A DNA stretch of 64,000 nt from Parcubacteria group bacterium Gr01-1014_8 (GCA_007376385.1 VMGC01000003.1:69259-133258), one strand, 5' to 3'. Shown: positions 5,507 through 46,463, counted from the first letter of the stretch. Numbers and translations: made by a program. The notes: generated by a model from the letters alone, not told the origin.

Positions 5507-5572
5507 ACTAGTTAACGACTGTTATGAATAAACTACTGCAATCGTATACCCGTATATTTCTCTGTAAAGATG

Positions 5573-6292
5573 CTACAACTCTATTCCCACGGTCACGCTC
5601 ACCGTTCCATCTCCCGCATCCTGAATGTATGCAGCAAACGTCCGAGTATCTTTCTTAGCGGCAATAACGTTCGTGCCTGCCATGTTCGCAGAGGCGTCGA
5701 TTGTCCAACCCTCTGCTTTCAAGCGCGAATTGTAATAGTCGAGGATGCTCTGCGCCGATGCTTTCGTCGTGTAAACAACCGCAGAGCCAGCCGCACCGGT
5801 CGCTGGATTCGTCGAACCGGAATACATAATCGTTGCTCCCGAATATACAGGAGGTGCATCTGATGGCCAATTGCTAGGCATGCCTGCACCGCTTCCGACT
5901 GTCACGCTTCCTTCACCCGTATTATACGTAACTGTGCCATCAGAGTTTCTGTCAACATCGGCACCATTCACTCCAGGAAGATAAGCCGAACCAATAGAAC
6001 CGCCTCGACCTCCCACACCTCCGAAGATGGCTACGAGCAATAAGACAACTGCTACCCCGCCGACTATCCAGAGTATTTTCTTGTTTTTGCCAGCCGGGGC
6101 CGGCGTTGCGCTTGTTCCTTCATCCATAATATATATGTGTCTATAAATAAGTACCCGCAGTCTCTCATCGGTCGCATTCCTGTGCAAGGCTGCATGGGGT
6201 AATGTTCCCCACTGCTTGCCGTCCTCAATGATATGAGACAATTGCCGGACAATACAAACCCGCATATGCAACGAGCGAATTGGTGGAAACAC
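5573..6292 (-). CDS. Hypothetical signal-anchored Gly/Ser/Thr-rich exported protein
   Basis: N-terminal TM segment ILWIVGGVAVVLLLVAIFGG followed by a low-complexity extracellular region. Confidence 0.5.
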   Translation of the reverse strand: MFPPIRSLHMRVCIVRQLSHIIEDGKQWGTLPHAALHRNATDERLRVLIYRHIYIMDEGTSATPAPAGKNKKILWIVGGVAVVLLLVAIFGGVGGRGGSIGSAYLPGVNGADVDRNSDGTVTYNTGEGSVTVGSGAGMPSNWPSDAPPVYSGATIMYSGSTNPATGAAGSAVVYTTKASAQSILDYYNSRLKAEGWTIDASANMAGTNVIAAKKDTRTFAAYIQDAGDGTVSVTVGIEL

Positions 6293-7537
6293 GCGAAAAT
6301 TTACGAACTCTATATCGATAAATTCGCAGGCACTATCAGCGGTCTTACGTCAAAGTTGGACTACTTTACGCATTTGGGAATAAACACTCTGCACGTTCTT
6401 CCGCACTATCCTTCCCCGATGGTCGACGATGGGTATGACGTGACAGATTATCAGAATGTACGTCCGGAATTAGGCACGCTCGATGATTTCAAGAAATTCC
6501 TCAACGAGGCACATAGCCGGGATATATATGTCATCGTCGATTTTGTTCTAAACCACGTCTCGAGTGAACACCCCTGGTTTGTCGAAGCGCGCGCGACCAG
6601 AGAAAACCCCAAACGCAATTTCTTTCTGTGGAGTAACACCGGTCAAGAATTCAAGAACGCGCGGAATGCGTTCGTGGATATTAAGCCATCGAATTGGATA
6701 AAGAACGAGTTAACGGAAGATTATTACTACGCAACATTCTATCCGGAACAACCTGATCTGAATTGGGACAACCCGCTCGTTTTTGAAGAGATGCTCCAAT
6801 ATGCGAAATTTTGGGTGGATCTGGGTGTCGACGGCTTTCGTTTGGACGCCGTGCCGTTCCTCATTAAACGTGAAAACTCACCTTCTCTTGGTCTACCAGA
6901 GACGCATGCGATCTTGAAAAAGATACGCGCGCAGCTCGATGAAAAATATAGCGGCCGGATCGCGCTCCTTGGAGAGGCACATCAGGAACTGAGAGACATG
7001 ATGCAGTACTTTGGCGATGGCGACGAATGCCACATGCTGTATCATTTCCCCATGATGGAACAAATGCTTCTTGCACTGATGCGAAATGATGATTCTGCGG
7101 TTCGCACAATGGTTCAAGCATCGTCCGACATTCCCCCTTCATGTGAGTGGGCAGTGTTTGTGAGAAATCACGACGACATCTCTCTCACAACGCTTCCAGA
7201 TGCCGACCGTATGGAACTCGTTGATTTTCTTGACCCTCAACATCGCTATCCATTCAGCAATCACACGACGACTTCGATGCGCTTGGGAAGCATTTTTGAG
7301 AATCATTCTTCTCGCGTTCTTGAGGCGCTTGAATTGCTGTATTCAGTGCCGGGAGTCAAAGTTCTTTACTACGGCGACGAGATCGGGATGAAGAATCTCC
7401 CTCTTCAGGAAGGCGTGCGCGATTCGCGCGTGTATGTTCGCGGGGAATTCGATTGGAACAGCGCAAATACGATGCTTGCAGACCCCGATTCGCTTTTAAA
7501 CAAGGTCGCGAGATGTATCAAGCGCAGTGCTGCCTGA
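6233..7537 (+). CDS. GH13 alpha-amylase-family glycoside hydrolase (trehalose synthase / alpha-glucosidase-like catalytic domain); start may be M12 at 6266
   Basis: WWKHAKIYELY, DGYDVTDY, VIVDFVLNHVS, GFRLDAVPFL conserved GH13 regions. Confidence 0.8.
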   Translation: MRQLPDNTNPHMQRANWWKHAKIYELYIDKFAGTISGLTSKLDYFTHLGINTLHVLPHYPSPMVDDGYDVTDYQNVRPELGTLDDFKKFLNEAHSRDIYVIVDFVLNHVSSEHPWFVEARATRENPKRNFFLWSNTGQEFKNARNAFVDIKPSNWIKNELTEDYYYATFYPEQPDLNWDNPLVFEEMLQYAKFWVDLGVDGFRLDAVPFLIKRENSPSLGLPETHAILKKIRAQLDEKYSGRIALLGEAHQELRDMMQYFGDGDECHMLYHFPMMEQMLLALMRNDDSAVRTMVQASSDIPPSCEWAVFVRNHDDISLTTLPDADRMELVDFLDPQHRYPFSNHTTTSMRLGSIFENHSSRVLEALELLYSVPGVKVLYYGDEIGMKNLPLQEGVRDSRVYVRGEFDWNSANTMLADPDSLLNKVARCIKRSAA

Positions 7538-8775
7538 TCTGCGATCCTCTCTTTCCTGCCGGCGAACTGTTTCGTGTACACAAGCCCTTCTTGATATACT
7601 TGCCGCACATGAAGTTGGCAGTAGTAGCAAGCATCGATAAGACAACGACGCCAAGCAGCAAAGGCGGGATGGAAGTTTGGACCTCCAATTTTGTCTTGGA
7701 AAGTTCGAAGCGAGGCCACCACATAGATCTGTACGCGACGGAGGGTTCGATACACGGTGAACGCGTCCGTCTCATCCCATCCCTGGATCGCCCGCTAAAC
7801 GATTACTTTTCCGACGAATATTTCACTGAAAATCCAGGAGATTTCGACAAGCGCAAGGAGAAATTCATGTCGACCGTCTACGCATCATTGCTCAAAAAAG
7901 TCCGCGATCAGGAAGATGGCTACGACATAATAGTCGATAGCGTCGCGTATCCTTCATTCTCTTTCAATACAAATACATTTCATAAGCCGGTTCTGACGAT
8001 CGGACATTTTCCTGTTGAGTTCATGCTGAAATTTTATGTCAAAACACTTGGCTGGCCGGAAAATAATACCGTAGTCTTTCCTTCTCGGTTCCAGAATGAC
8101 CACGCCACCTTCTTACCTGAATCAAAAAGGCACGTCATTCCTCACGGCATCGATGAGGCATCGCTGACCTTCAGTCCGGAAGGGGGGAGTGGCATGCTCT
8201 GGATGGCGCGAGTACACCATAAATTCATGAACAAGGGTCTCGACGACGCGTTGACGGTCGCGAACACTCTTAAAAGACCGATATATGCCACGGGGTTCAT
8301 TGAACGCTCTTCTCGAGCGTATTTTGATGAGATCATACGCCCGCTCCTCTCAGAGTATGCAACATTCGATGAACAAGGTATGGCAACTCCAATCGATAAA
8401 AGCCACGTGTTCGGAAACGCAAAACTTTTTCTTTTCCCTCTCAAATGGGAAGAAGCATTCGGTTTGGTCATGTTGGAATCGCTTGCCTGCGGGACACCCG
8501 TCGTGGCGTACGCGCGCGGCGCTGTTCCCGAGATAATCGAAGATGGCACCACGGGATTCATCGTAAATTCCAGCGCGGATGATATTCGAGGCGCATTCAC
8601 CATACAAAAAACTGGCCAGGAAGGTCTTTGCGAAGCAGTTGAGCGTATATATGCCATGAGCAAAGCAGACTACGCCGAAATGAGACGAGCTTGCCGTGCC
8701 CGCATCGAGAAATCGTTCACACGTAGAAGAATGTTCGATGGCTACGAACAGCTTTTCACGACGATCACAACTTAA
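7453..8775 (+). CDS. GT4-family glycosyltransferase; likely true start ATG 7609 (MKLAVVAS...)
   Basis: C-terminal GT-B motif FGLVMLESLACGTPVVAYARGAVPEIIEDGTTGF; the ORF-track 5' extension uses TTG and overlaps the GH13 gene in another frame. Confidence 0.8.
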   Translation: MEQRKYDACRPRFAFKQGREMYQAQCCLICDPLFPAGELFRVHKPFLIYLPHMKLAVVASIDKTTTPSSKGGMEVWTSNFVLESSKRGHHIDLYATEGSIHGERVRLIPSLDRPLNDYFSDEYFTENPGDFDKRKEKFMSTVYASLLKKVRDQEDGYDIIVDSVAYPSFSFNTNTFHKPVLTIGHFPVEFMLKFYVKTLGWPENNTVVFPSRFQNDHATFLPESKRHVIPHGIDEASLTFSPEGGSGMLWMARVHHKFMNKGLDDALTVANTLKRPIYATGFIERSSRAYFDEIIRPLLSEYATFDEQGMATPIDKSHVFGNAKLFLFPLKWEEAFGLVMLESLACGTPVVAYARGAVPEIIEDGTTGFIVNSSADDIRGAFTIQKTGQEGLCEAVERIYAMSKADYAEMRRACRARIEKSFTRRRMFDGYEQLFTTITT

Positions 8776-19286: not shown

Positions 19287-20563
19287 CTTCCACAAAGTGC
19301 GAAACCTTGGCACGATACCGACATTTGACTGCTATACTTTTGACAATGTACAAGGCGTTCAGCCGTGTCCTTGGGATCTTGATCGTTGTCATTCTCACGT
19401 CGGGAACATGGGCGTTTGCCACTCTGCCAAAGACAGTGGAGTTCGGCGGAGTAAAAATAAGCGAGGATACTGCAAAACATTTGAAAGGGGGGTGCGAGTA
19501 CGACCCGTATGCAAAATTATATGAGCTGAAAGCCGTCTCGAGTGGGGCGAAAGTCACGCCCACGCTCATCGATGGAGCGTTGAAAGACGGCCTCGATCCA
19601 GCGCTCGTCTGCCGGCTCACAAAACTAATTGAATGGGCACAGGGTCGTGGCTGTGTCCCTATGATAATCTCCGGTTTTCGTACATACGCTCAACAGGCTT
19701 CGATAGTGGCAAGAGGCAGATCAAAGGCGGGGCCAGGAGGTTCCTGCCATAATTTCGGACTGGCAGTAGACATGTCGAACCGTTGCCAAGGGGCGATGCA
19801 GGAGGCGGCACCGCAATTTGGACTGAAAAGCGGATTCCCCGGATATCCAAATCCGATCCACTTTCAATGCATCGAGCACAGCGCAGGTGCCGGACGATCT
19901 TCAGGGTGCAGAGGGTCGTGCAACGGAGGTATGGAAATCGCGCCAGACCCTACGATACTTTCCAATATCCCAAATAGCTCAGCTCCATTGGGCCTCGGAG
20001 ATGCGTTTAGACAGAACACGGGATTGGGTCAGCAGGATCCGCCGTCACCTGCTATTCCCCCGCAGTATGCAACCGCACAACCTCAGCAATTTTTTCAGCC
20101 AACCCAGACGGGACAGCCCGGTCAGACCGGACAGCCGACGACCATAGGAACACCGACGGGAGGAAGTACTATACCGACCACTGGAGAGCCTCCGCCGTCA
20201 GTAGGAGATAAATTGTTGAATCTAGCCTACGGAACTTCAACGATAGGCGGCCCAGTCAACATTGCAACGACAGTTCCTATTATCGTTACAAGCAAAGATG
20301 CAACAGGTCTGCCCGCAAAATCCACGAGCACACGATCAAAAGGATTCTACGGCACAACAACATCGCCGCTACACTTTGAGGAGACGTTCGGGACGAGTGA
20401 ATATGAAGACAACGGAACGTCCTCCGAGGTCGCAAGCAGAAATTGGATGGTACGGATACTCGCAGAATTGCGGGCCACACTTCTTATGATACTTGAGATA
20501 CTCCGACCCTTTGGCATTCGTACGATCATTGACGCCGAGACATACGAGATCCACGATGAATGA
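19268..20563 (+). CDS. Membrane-anchored M15-family (VanY-like) D,D-carboxypeptidase with a Pro/Gln/Thr-rich low-complexity tail; likely start ATG 19346
   Basis: ISGFRTYAQQ...GGSCHNFGLAVDM zinc-peptidase M15B motifs; TM helix ILIVVILTSGTWAF. Confidence 0.65.
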   Translation: MREPSVTSTKCETLARYRHLTAILLTMYKAFSRVLGILIVVILTSGTWAFATLPKTVEFGGVKISEDTAKHLKGGCEYDPYAKLYELKAVSSGAKVTPTLIDGALKDGLDPALVCRLTKLIEWAQGRGCVPMIISGFRTYAQQASIVARGRSKAGPGGSCHNFGLAVDMSNRCQGAMQEAAPQFGLKSGFPGYPNPIHFQCIEHSAGAGRSSGCRGSCNGGMEIAPDPTILSNIPNSSAPLGLGDAFRQNTGLGQQDPPSPAIPPQYATAQPQQFFQPTQTGQPGQTGQPTTIGTPTGGSTIPTTGEPPPSVGDKLLNLAYGTSTIGGPVNIATTVPIIVTSKDATGLPAKSTSTRSKGFYGTTTSPLHFEETFGTSEYEDNGTSSEVASRNWMVRILAELRATLLMILEILRPFGIRTIIDAETYEIHDE

Positions 20564-41414: not shown

Positions 41415-41849
41415 CTAACTTGTTGCAGGGGGATTGTCGGCAGCGGACGCCAGCGAAGCGTTTTCCTTTCTGTGATGAATATCGTAGAGATGTTTCAAGA
41501 GCACCATGGTAAGCGCCAACGAGACCAAAATGACGCCATATAACGCAGGCATGGACAGCTGTCCTATCGGTCCTGCGGATGACTGGAAGCTGGAAGGAAC
41601 AAACGTTTGTTCCGGAAGGAAATCTTCCGCGACTCCCTGTTTCTCTGCTTCGCCTGCAAGCGACTCAACTAAAACGGCAAGTTCGCTCTCAGATAGTTCG
41701 CTTGAACGCGGATCACTCAATAAAGATGCGCGTATTTCATCGCGAAGCAGTACTGAATCATCCGCTTGCGCAAAAACACTTATCGGGAGAACGAGCGCTC
41801 CTGCAAACAAAATCACTAGTGCAGTTTTTTTAATTGAATGCACGTTCAT
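41415..41849 (-). CDS. Hypothetical exported protein (signal peptide plus C-terminal TM anchor)
   Basis: MNVHSIKKTALVILFAGALVLPISVFA signal-like N-terminus; hydrophobic C-terminal segment followed by HHRKE. Confidence 0.45.
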   Translation of the reverse strand: MNVHSIKKTALVILFAGALVLPISVFAQADDSVLLRDEIRASLLSDPRSSELSESELAVLVESLAGEAEKQGVAEDFLPEQTFVPSSFQSSAGPIGQLSMPALYGVILVSLALTMVLLKHLYDIHHRKENASLASAADNPPATS

Positions 41850-41853
41850 ACGT

Positions 41854-42876
41854 CTAGAGTTCTTGGAAAATCGGGATAATGTTCACCGTCGCGGTCGGCT
41901 TTGGCAGAAATACCCCGCCGCTCGACTTCGTGCAGGAGAGTGTGTAGGTGGTCTGCGTAGAAATAGCGCTTGAAGTCTGCGTCCCAGACGTGCCTGACCA
42001 CGCATCGGTTATGTCGGGGTTATCCTCGGTGACTGTGCACGATGTTATGCCGGAGCTAATCCAGCTAACCTCTGTGGTCTCGCCTGCTCTGATGAGTGAT
42101 GGAGATACAGCGATGTCGGCCGCAGATGCGTCTCCTCCGCCAGAGAGACATGCGCCATTTGCACATCCATATGCGCACGCTTGTTCAAACTGATTCGAGC
42201 ACGTAGGAGGGTTTACTCTTCTGTAGAGGTCATTGCCTACGCACGTGAACTGCGGGCTGCATGCGGCATTAACAGTTACGGTTACATTACATGACCATGA
42301 CTCCGTTTGTACCAAGGCATCCCCGCTCTGTACCGACGAACGCGTACCTGTAAGCGTGTAGGTCGTACTTTGTGTCGGTGTGACCGACCACGAACCTGCC
42401 CACGCAACACCGCCAGGCGTTGGCGAGAGCGTTCGGGTCCATGGGTTAATGGGATCCGTTTCTGAACTCCACGAAAGATTGGATACTTGGCCGGATGCTA
42501 CTGTTAACGGCGACGCATATATGACACATCCGGAGCTTGGCTGTATCGGCGTATCGCAATCGCCGCTCTGATGGGGATTTGACGGACATGAGGCGGGAAC
42601 GATGCGTAACCCCGATCCGCTGTATTCCGTAAAACGAGTTTCTGAAGAAACTATGCCATCCTGCATTTGCAAAGCCCCGCTGAATTGAAAGACAGCTATC
42701 GAGAGCATACCGAACAATATTGCCCAATATGTGCGCGTAGATATGCCGCGCAAAATCTTCTCTGCAGAAAGCAACCGCATAACCCGTTCTGTACATTGTC
42801 CTATAGACACACGAGAGAAACAATGCGGTGCCTGTGCATAATTGTCCGCATACCTTTTTACAATCTCCTTCCGCAC
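41854..42876 (-). CDS. Hypothetical Cys-rich, Ser/Thr-rich surface protein (N-terminal TM)
   Basis: TM segment YWAILFGMLSIAVFQF; ~20 Cys; T/S-rich C-terminal half. Confidence 0.45.
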   Translation of the reverse strand: MRKEIVKRYADNYAQAPHCFSRVSIGQCTERVMRLLSAEKILRGISTRTYWAILFGMLSIAVFQFSGALQMQDGIVSSETRFTEYSGSGLRIVPASCPSNPHQSGDCDTPIQPSSGCVIYASPLTVASGQVSNLSWSSETDPINPWTRTLSPTPGGVAWAGSWSVTPTQSTTYTLTGTRSSVQSGDALVQTESWSCNVTVTVNAACSPQFTCVGNDLYRRVNPPTCSNQFEQACAYGCANGACLSGGGDASAADIAVSPSLIRAGETTEVSWISSGITSCTVTEDNPDITDAWSGTSGTQTSSAISTQTTYTLSCTKSSGGVFLPKPTATVNIIPIFQEL

Positions 42877-43724
42877 ATGGCCCGGGAAACAACGTCTGTT
42901 TTGGAGACATCCATAATGGAACCAGTCTGTATACTGCGCATATTCTCCCGCAGAGAATCCTGCAATGCGTATACGCCCTCCGGTGCAATACGGGGATCAT
43001 TTCCAGGATAGGCTGTCAGCCAATCTTTTTCTGTGATGGCCATCGCCGCTTTCACTGCATCCCGCGCTTTCTTCAGGGCAGCTTCCTTTTCGCCAAGTTC
43101 AAACAGCGCGATCGAATGCGAACTAAGAAGCCAGGGATTTTCCGGAAAAAGCTGGAGGCCATGTTCCGTCGCCGCACGTGCGTCGCGAGGGCAATTGCTT
43201 TTAAGCAGGACCCACGCGTAATCATTTAATCCAGCCCAATTTGACGGCTCCCGAGACAAGTAGAGTTCGTAATCTCTCGCGGCAGCCTCATAATCAGTCA
43301 TGAAACCCTCGATAAGGCCTCGCACGTAATAGGAATTCGCCTGTGCATCGCCGTGCTCGGAGATCTCGATAGTTATGTGAGCCAGCGCGGTTGCAAAATC
43401 ACTTCTCAAAAAATAGATCCGTGCAAGTTCGTGATGCACGTATGGAAAATGGGGCATGATAAAGGCGGCTTTTTTCAGATACGTCTCGGCTTTTTTAATG
43501 CTGTATGCATCGTCGCGTGTATTGAGAAAATACGAACCCATTTCATACAGAAGTTTCGGGTCATTAGGTGCGAGCATTCGTGCAGACTCAAGATGGATGC
43601 CCTCCCACAGCGCGTGCGCGAGAGCCGTGCGATAAAAGAAGATGAGCCCCGCAACAAACAACACCGACAAGGACGCGGCGACGATCAGCTTTGCCGATCT
43701 TGCCTTCCACATGCCGTGCATCAC
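42858..43724 (-). CDS. Membrane-anchored TPR-repeat protein
   Basis: N-terminal TM plus tetratricopeptide-like repeats (A..Y...A..Y helices repeated). Confidence 0.55.
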   Translation of the reverse strand: MMHGMWKARSAKLIVAASLSVLFVAGLIFFYRTALAHALWEGIHLESARMLAPNDPKLLYEMGSYFLNTRDDAYSIKKAETYLKKAAFIMPHFPYVHHELARIYFLRSDFATALAHITIEISEHGDAQANSYYVRGLIEGFMTDYEAAARDYELYLSREPSNWAGLNDYAWVLLKSNCPRDARAATEHGLQLFPENPWLLSSHSIALFELGEKEAALKKARDAVKAAMAITEKDWLTAYPGNDPRIAPEGVYALQDSLRENMRSIQTGSIMDVSKTDVVSRAMCGRRL

Positions 43725-44863
43725 TTGCTTATCTCACCGTATTTTATGAGAAACTCCTTGAAGTTCGGATTGAGTTCTGAGAGGTCAATGTAGCCTTTGT
43801 AGTAGCGCTCCCAATCAGCCTTTGAGCGCGCTCCCCCCTCGCGCAAAAAAGCAAGATAGTAGCCCTGGTGGACTGCTGGATCCTTCTCGACGAGCGTCAT
43901 GAGCGCATTCAGATACTTGTTGATCTCGGCTTTTGCGTCCGTACCCTGCACATCGTACAGCGCAAGTGCATAGTTGAAATATGTATACGGAAGACGCGAC
44001 GCGATAAGCGGAATGGGGGCTCCTTTCTCATCCCGCGTGGTCTCATTCAATTTCACCAATGCATCCAAGGCTATTTTAGCGTCCTCAAGATACTCCGGCT
44101 GTACCCTCGCCATCACTCCATAGAGATATGATTTCCAAAAGAGGAACCGGGGCTCAACCATATACTCGAACGGCCTTCCCTCGACGGTCTTCAATTCTTG
44201 GGGAAGCAAGGCATCCGCAGATGCTATGACCTTCGCTATTTCCCCCGCGTATTCCTTTTTTTGAGCTGGCGTCGCGTTCCAGTCTCCATATAAATTCCGG
44301 ATCCTGTCCGTATACCACTGACCTATGCGAAATTGAGCCTCCGTTGTCGGATACAAGGATATGGAATATTCCGCAAGATTGCGTATCGAGGTAGCCGCGT
44401 CATCTTGGACAAGGAAACTTTGGAACGGTTCGCCGACAAATACTTCATCAAATACGAATGGTTCAAATGCCGCGTTGATATAACCGAGTAATTTGTTCAC
44501 CTGGAGAGCTTTCTCATAGTTTGTTTTGCTGAGCGTATAGGTCTCCTTTGTCAGCTGTACCGCTTCAATGCGCTTGCGAGCATCGCCGCTCATGAATTTA
44601 CCGGTATCAACTACAGAACGCGCAACAAAATTTGGCTCCGATGAACCCCGCATGACCAGCTCCGCCTGTGCGACCGCCTCATCAGATCTCCCCTGCGCTG
44701 CAAGATGCAAAGCAGTGTCCGTCATTTTCTTTTGTTCTTCTTCGCTTAAGCCGCCTCGCAATAAAAAAAGGTCCGGGCGAAAGACATACAAAGCCGCCGT
44801 CGAAAGAACTGCCGCAACAAGAAGTATAAGAACGATGATCCCCCGTATGTTTGTTCCAGTCAT
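43721..44863 (-). CDS. Hypothetical membrane-anchored protein, possibly TPR-like helical repeats
   Basis: N-terminal TM IIVLILLVAAVLSTAALYV; alpha-helical repeat-rich. Confidence 0.4.
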   Translation of the reverse strand: MTGTNIRGIIVLILLVAAVLSTAALYVFRPDLFLLRGGLSEEEQKKMTDTALHLAAQGRSDEAVAQAELVMRGSSEPNFVARSVVDTGKFMSGDARKRIEAVQLTKETYTLSKTNYEKALQVNKLLGYINAAFEPFVFDEVFVGEPFQSFLVQDDAATSIRNLAEYSISLYPTTEAQFRIGQWYTDRIRNLYGDWNATPAQKKEYAGEIAKVIASADALLPQELKTVEGRPFEYMVEPRFLFWKSYLYGVMARVQPEYLEDAKIALDALVKLNETTRDEKGAPIPLIASRLPYTYFNYALALYDVQGTDAKAEINKYLNALMTLVEKDPAVHQGYYLAFLREGGARSKADWERYYKGYIDLSELNPNFKEFLIKYGEISK

Positions 44864-44868
44864 AGAGA

Positions 44869-45195
44869 TTATTTTCCCCCGCTGCCTCCGCTTCCTCCGG
44901 CACAGCCATCACAACAATCACCTGCGCCAGCGTCACCTGCATCACCTGCATCACCTGCGCAGCCTCCACACCCACCGTCGCTGCAACCATCCGACGTGCA
45001 ACTCGAACAACTCGAACAACTGCCCGGGGCATCGGCGCGCGCCACATCAGAATTTCCTAAAACTCGCTCGCCGCCTCCCCCTCCAAATACGCGCGGCGCA
45101 ATGACAGTAAGAAGCACGATGACAGCACCGAGGAACAGTAACCCCGCATTCCGGATCGCCTTATATCCTCGCTGGGAGATGCGTACAATAGCCAT
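44869..45195 (-). CDS. Small protein with one TM helix and a Gly/Ser/Cys/Asp-rich C-terminal core; candidate RiPP precursor
   Basis: Core SCSSCSSCTSDGCSDGGCGGCAGDAGDAGDAGAGDCCDGCAGGSGGSGGK resembles microcin-B17/TOMM-type cores; lies in the island with YcaO and SagB-type genes. Confidence 0.5.
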   Translation of the reverse strand: MAIVRISQRGYKAIRNAGLLFLGAVIVLLTVIAPRVFGGGGGERVLGNSDVARADAPGSCSSCSSCTSDGCSDGGCGGCAGDAGDAGDAGAGDCCDGCAGGSGGSGGK

Positions 45196-45269
45196 AGCGA
45201 AAGTATATCAGTACACAGCACAATATCCGCGCCTTATGTGGATATGTACTTCCACCCTATCTCGCCCTG

Positions 45270-46463
45270 CTATTTTTGTATCCAATCATTGGTTTGAAAG
45301 ATCGAAAAATCCAAAGCGCATACATTCGCTGTCTCGATAACCCGATGCAGAGGCTCGTGCGCAAACGATAGATCGAGCGACCAGAAGATTTCCCGTATGG
45401 GCGGCTCGCCCCGGCACAGCGCTTTGAGTTCGAACCAGCGTGTATACGGGCTACAGCGACAAGGACGATTTTGCCATGCACCTTTTATAACCTTCTCGGT
45501 CCCGTCCTCGTACCGTACCGTCGCAAGCGATACGCCGCTCGTGGCCGGAAAGTAAGTCGCAATGCCGAGATGAGGCCTCGCAAATGTAAAACTTCGGCTA
45601 TGGAGCGCAAAGATGATCCATGCGTGCATCATCAATAGACCTAGACAGATGATGGCCATGCGCCATATGTAGGTGCCACTGGGTTTTTTTGCAGGCACGT
45701 CGAACCAAAAAAGCGCGGGCAAGATCGGCACGATAAGCAACATGTAGTATTGTTCAAAGACAACGCCTGCATACACATGGAACGCTACAAAGACGCTCAG
45801 TACGCCTCTGCGATACCGCGCGTCTTTAGAAAGGAGGTACCACACGCCGATCCACTGCAGAGCAAACGCTCCATGTACGAACCATAATTCGACGCCTGCA
45901 GGAATGAGCGGCATATCCTTCGGCAGGCCATCCAAGATATACGCGCGATAAAATTCTGTGACACCGCCAAGTACATACAGAAAGACAACAAGAGCACGCG
46001 CTGTCCATTCCTTGCATGCGGCAAATAACAGCACCGCTGACAGCAGGAGGTGCAGGTATGAGTACGCTTCGCCGGCTTCATATGAGAGAACGAGGAGAAA
46101 AAAAGCTTCCCACAACCAAGTCAGAAGAAAGATGCCGTGTGCCGCGAGCCATCGACCCCTGATCGCCGCAAATAAAGCAACCGTTTGCAGAATGAACAGG
46201 AAGCCATACAGCGCCGTCTGCGAATAACCGTATTGTTTTAAATTTAGGAAATACCATTCACCGCATTGCTGAAAAAACGGCCAGCATGTATACACGTTGC
46301 TTTGGTATGCCTGAACGGTGCCCGCATCATCGCCGACAAACGTTGCGAAGAGGAACATCTGATACGCGAGCGCAATGAAAAATAAGATGCGCGCGTTTTC
46401 GGAAGGCAAAAATTCGCTCAAAGAGAAAAACTTCTGGTAGGAATCACGGAGGCGCTCCAACAT
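45270..46463 (-). CDS. Polytopic integral membrane protein (8-10 TM); family unassigned (HTTM/SdpB-like is one possibility)
   Basis: Multiple hydrophobic helices rich in W/Y/F; first gene of a minus-strand operon that includes the Cys-rich peptide. Confidence 0.4.
   Translation of the reverse strand: MLERLRDSYQKFFSLSEFLPSENARILFFIALAYQMFLFATFVGDDAGTVQAYQSNVYTCWPFFQQCGEWYFLNLKQYGYSQTALYGFLFILQTVALFAAIRGRWLAAHGIFLLTWLWEAFFLLVLSYEAGEAYSYLHLLLSAVLLFAACKEWTARALVVFLYVLGGVTEFYRAYILDGLPKDMPLIPAGVELWFVHGAFALQWIGVWYLLSKDARYRRGVLSVFVAFHVYAGVVFEQYYMLLIVPILPALFWFDVPAKKPSGTYIWRMAIICLGLLMMHAWIIFALHSRSFTFARPHLGIATYFPATSGVSLATVRYEDGTEKVIKGAWQNRPCRCSPYTRWFELKALCRGEPPIREIFWSLDLSFAHEPLHRVIETANVCALDFSIFQTNDWIQK

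Follow-up and report, generated by a model that had tools for sequence, protein, structure and literature searches.

The described systems closest to the locus considered here are microcin B17 (McbA; McbBCD), streptolysin S (SagA/SagBCD), plantazolicin and the heterocycloanthracins, in which, as here, a short product with a Gly/Ser/Cys-rich C-terminal part is found with a SagD-type YcaO and a SagB. Standalone YcaOs, which act independently of a partner protein, are represented by the bottromycin YcaOs and the archaeal YcaOs of McrA thioamidation. In Bacillus subtilis SdpC/SdpAB, a toxin precursor carrying a Sec signal is matured with SdpB, a membrane protein of the HTTM/gamma-carboxylase family. 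The locus lies in a 64,000-nucleotide stretch of DNA from Parcubacteria group bacterium Gr01-1014_8 (GCA_007376385.1, VMGC01000003.1:69259-133258), referred to as the window, and is centred on a small open reading frame (ORF) on the minus strand (44869-45195) that begins with ATG and encodes a 108-amino acid protein (NCBI: hypothetical protein G01um10148_720). The small ORF is a genuine gene, belonging to an unnamed family of exported or anchored proteins of the candidate phyla radiation (CPR). With a probability of roughly 0.55, we consider the small protein to be an exported or membrane-anchored substrate of the adjacent SagD-type YcaO and SagB, yielding a product at the cell surface together with membrane-anchored tetratricopeptide repeat (TPR) scaffolds.

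The small ORF has an unambiguous start: reading upstream in frame, a stop is reached after 5 codons with no alternative start on the way, which answers the check for GTG or TTG starts proposed in an earlier note on this stretch. Residues 1-17 (45145-45195, minus strand) form a basic segment, aligned with its relatives as M-A-I-V-R-I-S-Q-R-G-Y-K-x-x-R-N-x, which is predicted to be cytoplasmic and is a possible recognition element. A transmembrane (TM) helix or signal-anchor h-region follows (residues 18-34; 45094-45144, minus strand), delimited by hydropathy and conservation and ending at Pro34. The Kyte-Doolittle 19-residue maximum of 2.46, reached at residues 19-37, is that of a strong TM helix, in line with the TM-like leader or anchor segment described in the earlier note. 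Charge is asymmetric, with 4 K/R and 0 D/E in the N-terminal flank and 8 D/E against 1 K in the tail. Beyond the helix, the motif A-R-A-D-A-P (45025-45042, minus strand; family consensus x-A-x-A-D-[A/V]-P) is a putative signal-peptidase-I processing site of the AxA type, and cleavage between AxA and D would leave a "mature" tail beginning at D55. As judged by these sequence features, the N-terminal part looks like an export signal or anchor and not like the soluble leader of a ribosomally produced peptide that is modified after translation (RiPP).

The hypervariable Cys/Ser/Gly/Asp-rich tail (residues 55-108; 44872-45033, minus strand) contains 9 Cys and 10 Ser+Thr and is the candidate heterocyclization core. 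A GDCC(D/G)G motif near its end is conserved in the family alignment, and the protein terminates in GGK, without a Hint domain. The last 50 residues consist of G17 S9 C9 D7 A6 T1 K1, that is, 96% G/S/C/D/A, exactly the residues quoted in the earlier note. A six-frame scan of the whole 64 kb returned the tail as the sole stop-free 50-amino acid stretch with at least 80% G/S/C/D/A. The repeat expansion previously suspected from a (GDA)n repeat in the DNA was corroborated by Tandem Repeats Finder (TRF), which detected three 9-bp arrays within the tail, at 44874-44899 (SGG), 44933-44958 (GDA; 2.9 copies, 100% match) and 44999-45021 (SCS).

For identification of relatives, a word-indexed (k-mer-prefiltered) protein search with the 108-amino acid query returned only the query itself, and no Pfam or NCBIfam model matched the small protein. 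Relatives were instead reached via the neighbouring genes and then by an exhaustive HMMER scan (phmmer, 1.84 billion representatives). Six homologs (44-50% identity) were found for the 397-amino acid membrane protein encoded upstream, and each of their contigs carries a small ORF at the equivalent position. The seven close members obtained in this way share a common plan: M-x-x-x-R-x-x-x-R-G-Y-K-x-x-R-N-x-G-L, a TM helix ending in P-R-x-F-G, a linker of ~15 residues, (V/I)-A-x-A-D-A-P and a variable G/S/C/D tail with GDCC(D/G)G. Over the first 37 ungapped codons of these seven relatives, pairwise differences at codon positions 1, 2 and 3 numbered 382, 193 and 511, respectively; the order 3 > 1 > 2 indicates that the hydrophobic segment is translated. 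By phmmer, 18 matches were obtained at E<=1e-3, of which 16 are proteins of 76-134 amino acids with the architecture of the small protein. Across an alignment of 18 sequences, G23, A54 and D55 are invariant and R9, R15, L19, P34 and P57 are at least 90% conserved. In one member (L031), VRA followed by DAP stands directly after the h-region, as in a canonical signal peptide. The reading frame, whose conservation the earlier note had made a test of the gene, is the same throughout, as is the architecture.

Public gene calls for the family are often wrong, and the family is under-represented in protein databases for this reason. The copy in L008 (3870-4220) is uncalled, that in L010 (4738-5136) is called in the wrong frame, those in L002 (11245-11541) and L011 (1519-1812) are truncated at an internal Met, and the low-complexity part of the L032 member (1298-1660) is masked to N. 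Two contigs with a CPR-type cluster (L024, L030) are labelled as metagenome-assembled genomes of Methanosarcinales and Bathyarchaeia, which are probably binning errors.

In the window, the small ORF is preceded by an extended -10-like promoter element, TGATATACT (45202-45210, minus strand), that ends 6 nt before the ATG. In all of the 7 close relatives, and in many distant ones, the same element, TG(N)TATACT, stands with its end 6-9 nt ahead of the ATG, and neither the window nor the relatives inspected showed a Shine-Dalgarno sequence upstream of the small ORF. Given this spacing and the lack of a visible Shine-Dalgarno sequence, the mRNA is probably leaderless. The element is not confined to this gene: TGNTATACT occurs 6 times in the window against 0.65 expected, and TGnTATACT followed after 6-8 nt by ATG also precedes two long ORFs (7592-7600 and 19330-19338, both plus strand), again with no Shine-Dalgarno sequence evident. 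It would thus seem to be the normal promoter type of this genome, with leaderless mRNAs as a regular feature.

Since the small ORF has its own promoter-like element, it is not simply the second cistron of a membrane-protein operon. The earlier note had placed it in an operon headed by a polytopic membrane protein; that gene does lie 75 bp upstream on the same strand, but the separate promoter-like element and the absence of the membrane-protein gene from most relatives speak against such an arrangement. Between the stop codon of the small ORF and the ATG of the next gene there are 5-14 nt in close relatives and 5 nt in the window, and the small ORF therefore probably heads a transcript shared with that gene. 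Upstream of the promoter element lies a DnaA-box-like octamer, TATCCACA (45237-45244, minus strand). The form (T/A)TATCCACA is found upstream of the -10 element in most family members, at a variable spacing of ~10-40 nt where measurable; carriers include L002, L005, L007, L011, L014, L020, L024, L091, L092, L094 and others, with exact TTATCCACA in L014 and L020. The octamer occurs in 3 copies in the window against 1.04 expected, one of them intergenic at 50843-50850 (plus strand), upstream of a 66-amino acid ORF. A terminator-like hairpin between TATCCACA and the 3' end of the upstream membrane gene was considered and rejected, as the motif is also present in loci lacking that gene.

The 475-amino acid YcaO of the window (48217-49644, plus strand), of the SagD cyclodehydratase type of thiazole/oxazole-modified microcins (TOMMs) and with the C terminus PHPFV, starts 3.0 kb from the small ORF on the opposite strand, divergently and at about the distance given in the earlier note. 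It is directly followed by a 242-amino acid FMN dehydrogenase of the SagB family (49647-50375, plus strand; Pfam Nitroreductase). A YcaO-profile scan of one genome per species gave 79 loci, 26 of which were of the CPR type with a YcaO 29-46% identical to that of the window. The small ORFs that the earlier note proposed looking for beside YcaO genes of related genomes are indeed there: of 25 CPR YcaO loci that could be assessed by tblastn and ORF scanning, 21 were found to contain a family member, in most cases 1-400 bp from YcaO. Usually, and unlike in the window, the small ORF adjoins a run of YcaO, SagB and a gene for a phosphoribosyltransferase-like (PRT) domain fused to a propeller, with no intervening membrane gene. 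Elsewhere PRT-propeller precedes YcaO and SagB. The small ORF may be divergent, set apart by an HTTM-like gene or, as in L035 and L037, directly downstream of YcaO, and small ORFs stand beside the HTTM-like gene in L021. A strict rule stated beforehand, which required a hydrophobic run followed by x-A-[DE]-x-[PTV] and a tail with at least 75% G/S/C/D/T/A/N/E, was matched 19 times in the CPR YcaO loci (385 kb) and never in the other YcaO loci (940 kb); its single match in the window was the small ORF itself. The reverse approach, starting from small protein P0015, led to L091, beside PRT-propeller and YcaO, and a scan of metagenomes with a profile of p380, the protein encoded next to the small ORF, led to L094 and L099, where YcaO is adjacent. 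The recurrent set comprises the small ORF, YcaO, SagB and p380/TPR; PRT-propeller, CapK-like and HTTM-like genes are variable.

The type of chemistry was assessed from profile matches, motifs and tail composition. The YcaO matches Pfam YcaO at 3e-44 and has TIGR03604 (SagD) as its best NCBIfam match, and the SagB scores 123.7 bits against TIGR03605, above the cutoff of 78.4. All CPR YcaOs end in PHPF-x, several of them in PHPFP, and the acidic motifs ExxER and EIIERD are invariant. These C termini resemble PxPxP, the canonical motif of azoline-forming YcaOs (PMC12338566). The adjacent SagB, the SagD best model and PHPF-x point towards azoles as the products, not amidines or thioamides. Three distant YcaO homologs (26-30% identity) have classical precursors of the linear azol(in)e-containing peptide (LAP) type, with soluble leaders, directly upstream (L036:9666-9863, L038:9618-9845 and L039:3120-3356, all plus strand; for example SNSCTSAGGGNCGTGCGGGGGGGFSLPRR and CTNSGNGCTGSCNRCSG). 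Their cores are rich in Gly/Cys/Ser/Thr/Asn (for example CTSAGGGNCGTGCGGGGGGG or CTNSGNGCTGSC), which ties this YcaO lineage to Gly/Cys-rich cores. Within the family, the median Cys density of the tail is 0.16 where SagB is present (n=22), and the values without SagB are 0, 0, 0.03 and 0.09 (L035, L037, L097 and L010, respectively); for C+S+T the densities are 0.35 with and 0.13 without. One-sided Mann-Whitney tests, uncorrected for shared ancestry, gave p = 0.006 (Cys) and 0.001 (C+S+T).

A sequence of events can be proposed on the basis of enzyme family and linkage. The small ORF would be read from the extended -10 promoter in front of it, with a leaderless mRNA as the probable transcript, and be expressed with the next gene, whose product is a TM-anchored TPR-like solenoid. 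The first ~55 residues, comprising the basic segment, TM helix, linker and AxA-D(A/V)P motif, would act as a combined leader and export signal, and the positive-inside rule predicts an N-in/C-out helix. Before insertion, the SagD-type YcaO would cyclodehydrate Cys residues of the tail, and perhaps Ser/Thr, with ATP in the cytoplasm, and SagB would then oxidize the azolines to azoles; chemistry on the tail is in this way predicted from sequence. Modification at this stage is plausible for a protein of ~100 amino acids, which would leave the ribosome before much targeting has occurred. Once outside the membrane, the tail might stay anchored or be cut free at the AxA site, and it might be handled by the TPR-like membrane proteins; in this lineage, the protein of the gamma-carboxylase fold may also handle it or modify it further. 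For an acidic product rich in Gly/Asp and azoles or thiols, cation binding or a role at the surface would be a better fit than poisoning of DNA gyrase. More tentatively, and with a good deal less confidence than in the substrate assignment itself, we suggest that CPR bacteria (Paceibacteria, Parcubacteria and relatives) keep a partner-less SagD-type YcaO with SagB beside the ribosomal operon in order to install azoles on a Sec-type acidic Gly/Cys-rich protein that is anchored in the membrane or secreted, that TM-anchored TPR scaffolds display or handle the product, which in some lineages a gamma-carboxylase-fold membrane enzyme or a Hedgehog-like Hint domain processes further, and that the outcome is an azole-bearing surface component (a cation or metal chelator, or a factor for host attachment) and not a diffusible antibiotic.

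The remaining genes of the cluster lie on both sides of the small ORF. Upstream, at 45270-46463 (minus strand), is the 397-amino acid polytopic membrane protein, with a putative vitamin-K gamma-glutamyl carboxylase-like (HTTM-like) fold, a C-terminal alpha/beta domain and the conserved Cys motifs TCWP..C and RPCRCSPY. Pfam HTTM does not match it, and the gene is an accessory one, present in some lineages only and missing from most family loci. Downstream lies the gene that accompanies the small ORF most constantly, p380 (43721-44863, minus strand; 380 amino acids), with its ATG 5 nt past the small-ORF stop; its product combines a TM helix at the N terminus with a TPR-like solenoid that is all-alpha. 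It was considered as a divergent SagC-like partner and rejected in view of this architecture. A 288-amino acid TPR protein (42858-43724, minus strand; Pfam TPR) with an N-terminal hydrophobic segment belongs to the same operon and is conserved downstream of p380. Two further conserved, unannotated genes for envelope proteins, p340 (41854-42876, minus strand; 340 amino acids, a TM helix and a Cys/Ser/Thr-rich beta-type domain) and p144 (41415-41849, minus strand; 144 amino acids, a signal peptide ending VFAQA before DD and a C-terminal TM helix), lie between the TPR gene and the minus-strand ribosomal-protein genes that are led by rplC (rplC, rplD, rplW, rplB onward).

The first gene of the divergent YcaO operon encodes the PRT-propeller protein (46462-48171, plus strand), a 569-amino acid fusion of the PRT-like domain and a pyrroloquinoline quinone (PQQ)/BamB-like beta-propeller. 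The gene is found in many family loci, though not in all, and is kept in L097, which has no YcaO. Beyond sagB lies the 66-amino acid Cys-rich ORF (50473-50673, minus strand), overlooked by the gene caller and without a Pfam match, which has a clear signal peptide and the C terminus NSCMSICRNCYKGKRCGSYCAGWKR; its counterpart in L002 (5921-6160) has 79 amino acids and the same C..x3..CRxC…C..YC pattern. It is followed by two PaaK/CapK-like adenylate-forming enzymes of 425 and 455 amino acids (50923-53564, minus strand), which are accessory and present in some lineages only. Pfam and NCBIfam returned nothing for the 397-, 380-, 340- and 144-amino acid proteins, nor for the genes of 421 and 899 amino acids that lie past the two CapK-like ones.

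Two family members have a folded domain behind the Cys-rich region. In L033 (4193-5011, minus strand), a basic N terminus, a hydrophobic segment and P-A-N-A-D-T-D are followed by CDCECSECSECSECSECSGGGGC, and this Cys/Gly-rich stretch is fused to a C-terminal autoprocessing domain of the Hint/intein type ending in IVHNC; the next gene encodes a TM-anchored TPR-like protein. By its sequence, the fusion suggests a Hedgehog-like self-cleavage or transfer of the Cys-rich segment. In L012 (1-714, minus strand), where the member is divergent from YcaO, the Gly/Cys stretch runs into a domain, FICTELYRQGRLSIAWYEADSRF, that has no Pfam match and within which the contig ends.

That the small protein is an unmodified, exported or anchored acidic stalk rich in Gly/Asp/Cys, serving as a cation binder or envelope component while YcaO and SagB act elsewhere and their adjacency is inherited synteny, is a possibility we take seriously yet hold to be the less probable account. 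Several observations favour it or weigh against the small protein as a YcaO/SagB substrate. In L096/L097, the small ORF, p380, TPR, p340, p144 and PRT-propeller are kept without YcaO or SagB, teichoic-acid-type genes being found instead (features at 5512-7605, minus strand, and 7233-7691, plus strand, for the PRT-propeller and small-protein module lineage). The small protein there has an ordinary, non-repetitive middle, 2 Cys and a D/G-rich end. From this persistence it follows that the basal role of the family is not that of a YcaO-dependent antibiotic, and that PRT-propeller is tied to the small-protein module and not only to YcaO. In L035 and L037, YcaO is present, SagB is not and the tail is free of Cys, and L018, L024 and L030 have SagB with only 1-3 Cys in the tail alongside many Ser/Thr. 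Several tails are nearly Cys-free. The module adjoins rplC in several lineages, and the features of the N terminus are those of a signal anchor. In L033 and L012 the low-complexity region joins this anchor to a folded domain (Hint in the one, unassigned in the other), which fits a flexible stalk equally well. Among the cluster genes at 41.4-57.6 kb, Pfam and NCBIfam revealed no E1-like/ThiF-like (McbB-type) protein, RiPP recognition element (RRE), ABC exporter, peptidase or immunity gene; the RRE negative holds at the level of sequence profiles, and YcaO residues 1-100 or PRT-propeller might harbour a cryptic RRE. The YcaO scores 186.6 bits against TIGR03604, below the curated cutoff of 219, and its nearest solved structures by sequence (PDB 6pe3/6ci7) are archaeal and thioamide-forming. 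With an N-in/C-out anchor, the tail would end up outside and out of a cytoplasmic ATP-dependent enzyme's reach, so that modification would have to come before insertion, and the AxA motif of most members stands ~20 residues beyond the h-region, a long distance for signal peptidase I. Finally, the adjacency counts and the Mann-Whitney tests overstate independence because relatives share ancestry. Inherited synteny, however, sits poorly with an adjacency to YcaO that outlasts inversions and insertions and holds away from ribosomal genes, with loci such as L017 and L022, where few recognised cluster genes besides YcaO and SagB are nearby, with the tracking of SagB by the C/S/T content of the tail, and with the lack of any other conserved small ORF to accompany these YcaOs. 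Modification of the tail by YcaO and SagB thus remains the reading we prefer, and the small protein is their most plausible substrate, as the proposal of a heterocyclizable TOMM core in the earlier note requires, although its leader, with a TM helix and AxA motif, is atypical.

The other alternatives carry less weight. A classical antibiotic precursor of the microcin B17/LAP type, with a leader read by a BCD-type synthetase and a core that is a diffusible toxin, would account for the Gly/Ser/Cys-rich core and the SagD-type YcaO and SagB nearby, but we judge it unlikely: homology to McbA or any catalogued precursor family was not found; equivalents of McbB (E1-like), McbE, McbF and McbG, or of an ABC exporter, leader peptidase and immunity gene, went undetected among the scanned neighbours; a TM helix is part of the leader; with 8 D/E, the tail is strongly acidic, and structural TPR proteins are encoded immediately downstream; and many reduced CPR genomes have the locus conserved in one and the same chromosomal position. 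Such broad conservation suggests a housekeeping-like role over a sporadic bacteriocin island, and "microcin-B17-like" in the sense of family membership finds no support. Very unlikely indeed is the 66-amino acid ORF, with its CxxxCRxC...C..YC pattern, as the true YcaO/SagB substrate. It does begin 98 bp from the end of sagB, with a homolog at the same place in L002-L004, but it is restricted to the window and one related lineage and absent from other CPR YcaO loci, it lies downstream of the CapK-like genes on their strand, and its spaced Cys residues look like those of a disulfide-bonded secreted mini-protein; as a general substrate it was rejected for its occurrence in two lineages only. Lastly, low complexity, the lack of a Pfam or NCBIfam match and three overlapping ORFs in other frames, among them 44568-45104 (plus strand) and 44682-45047 (minus strand), might suggest a chance ORF in repetitive, locally GC-rich DNA. 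This notion is refuted for practical purposes by the frame, start, N terminus and motifs kept across dozens of genomes, the coding pattern of substitutions, and the conserved promoter element and spacing to the next gene. The overlapping ORFs are most likely by-products of repetitive codons, relatives having yielded only the 44869-45195 frame.

CPR bacteria have tiny genomes with few recognisable biosynthetic clusters, and YcaO/SagB with a small partner are nonetheless retained across many of their lineages, adjoining the ribosomal-protein operon in that of the window and in several related ones. Literature searches (YcaO/RiPP in CPR/Patescibacteria, YcaO with PRT/PQQ, HTTM with SdpB) found no description of the small-protein family or of this cluster type. 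If the tail is heterocyclized, the protein would be a TOMM lacking an E1-like partner, in which one segment serves both as leader and as membrane or export signal, an arrangement we have not seen described; this would broaden the rules of RiPP genome mining, the tools for which, like gene callers, currently miss these ORFs, and would point to a modified surface or metal-binding molecule in episymbionts that depend on their envelope. Were the tail unmodified, the family would still be a widespread CPR envelope component without annotation, newly delineated here and with a clear motif signature.

In comparison with known systems, the small protein is TOMM-precursor-like in composition and linkage; of the defining LAP features, no E1/RRE partner was detected among the scanned cluster genes, and the leader does not look like a soluble one. 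Hedgehog/Hint autoprocessing proteins are resembled by the L033 member only, in which Hint follows the Cys/Gly-rich region. SdpC, too, is small, contains Cys residues, has an export signal at its N terminus and is encoded next to a polytopic protein of the gamma-carboxylase fold, but it is neither of low complexity nor known to be linked to YcaO, and in the present family most loci are without the HTTM-like gene. With standalone YcaOs the CPR enzymes have in common a length of ~440-475 amino acids and no fused or adjacent E1-like domain; the YcaO of the window differs from them in its adjacent SagB, its SagD best model and PHPF-x, and no TfuA accompanies it. With LAPs the small protein shares a hypervariable, repeat-expanding core. 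It differs from microcin B17 and the LAPs in bearing no relationship to catalogued precursors, its full-length matches in two large protein searches all being small proteins of the CPR type with its own architecture, and in scanned cluster genes that include no detected E1-like C protein, RRE, exporter, protease or immunity gene. It differs, too, in its basic segment, TM helix and AxA motif, its very acidic tail and the TM-anchored TPR-like products of its companion genes, and in belonging to a locus that is conserved across the CPR and to a family that also exists without the enzymes.

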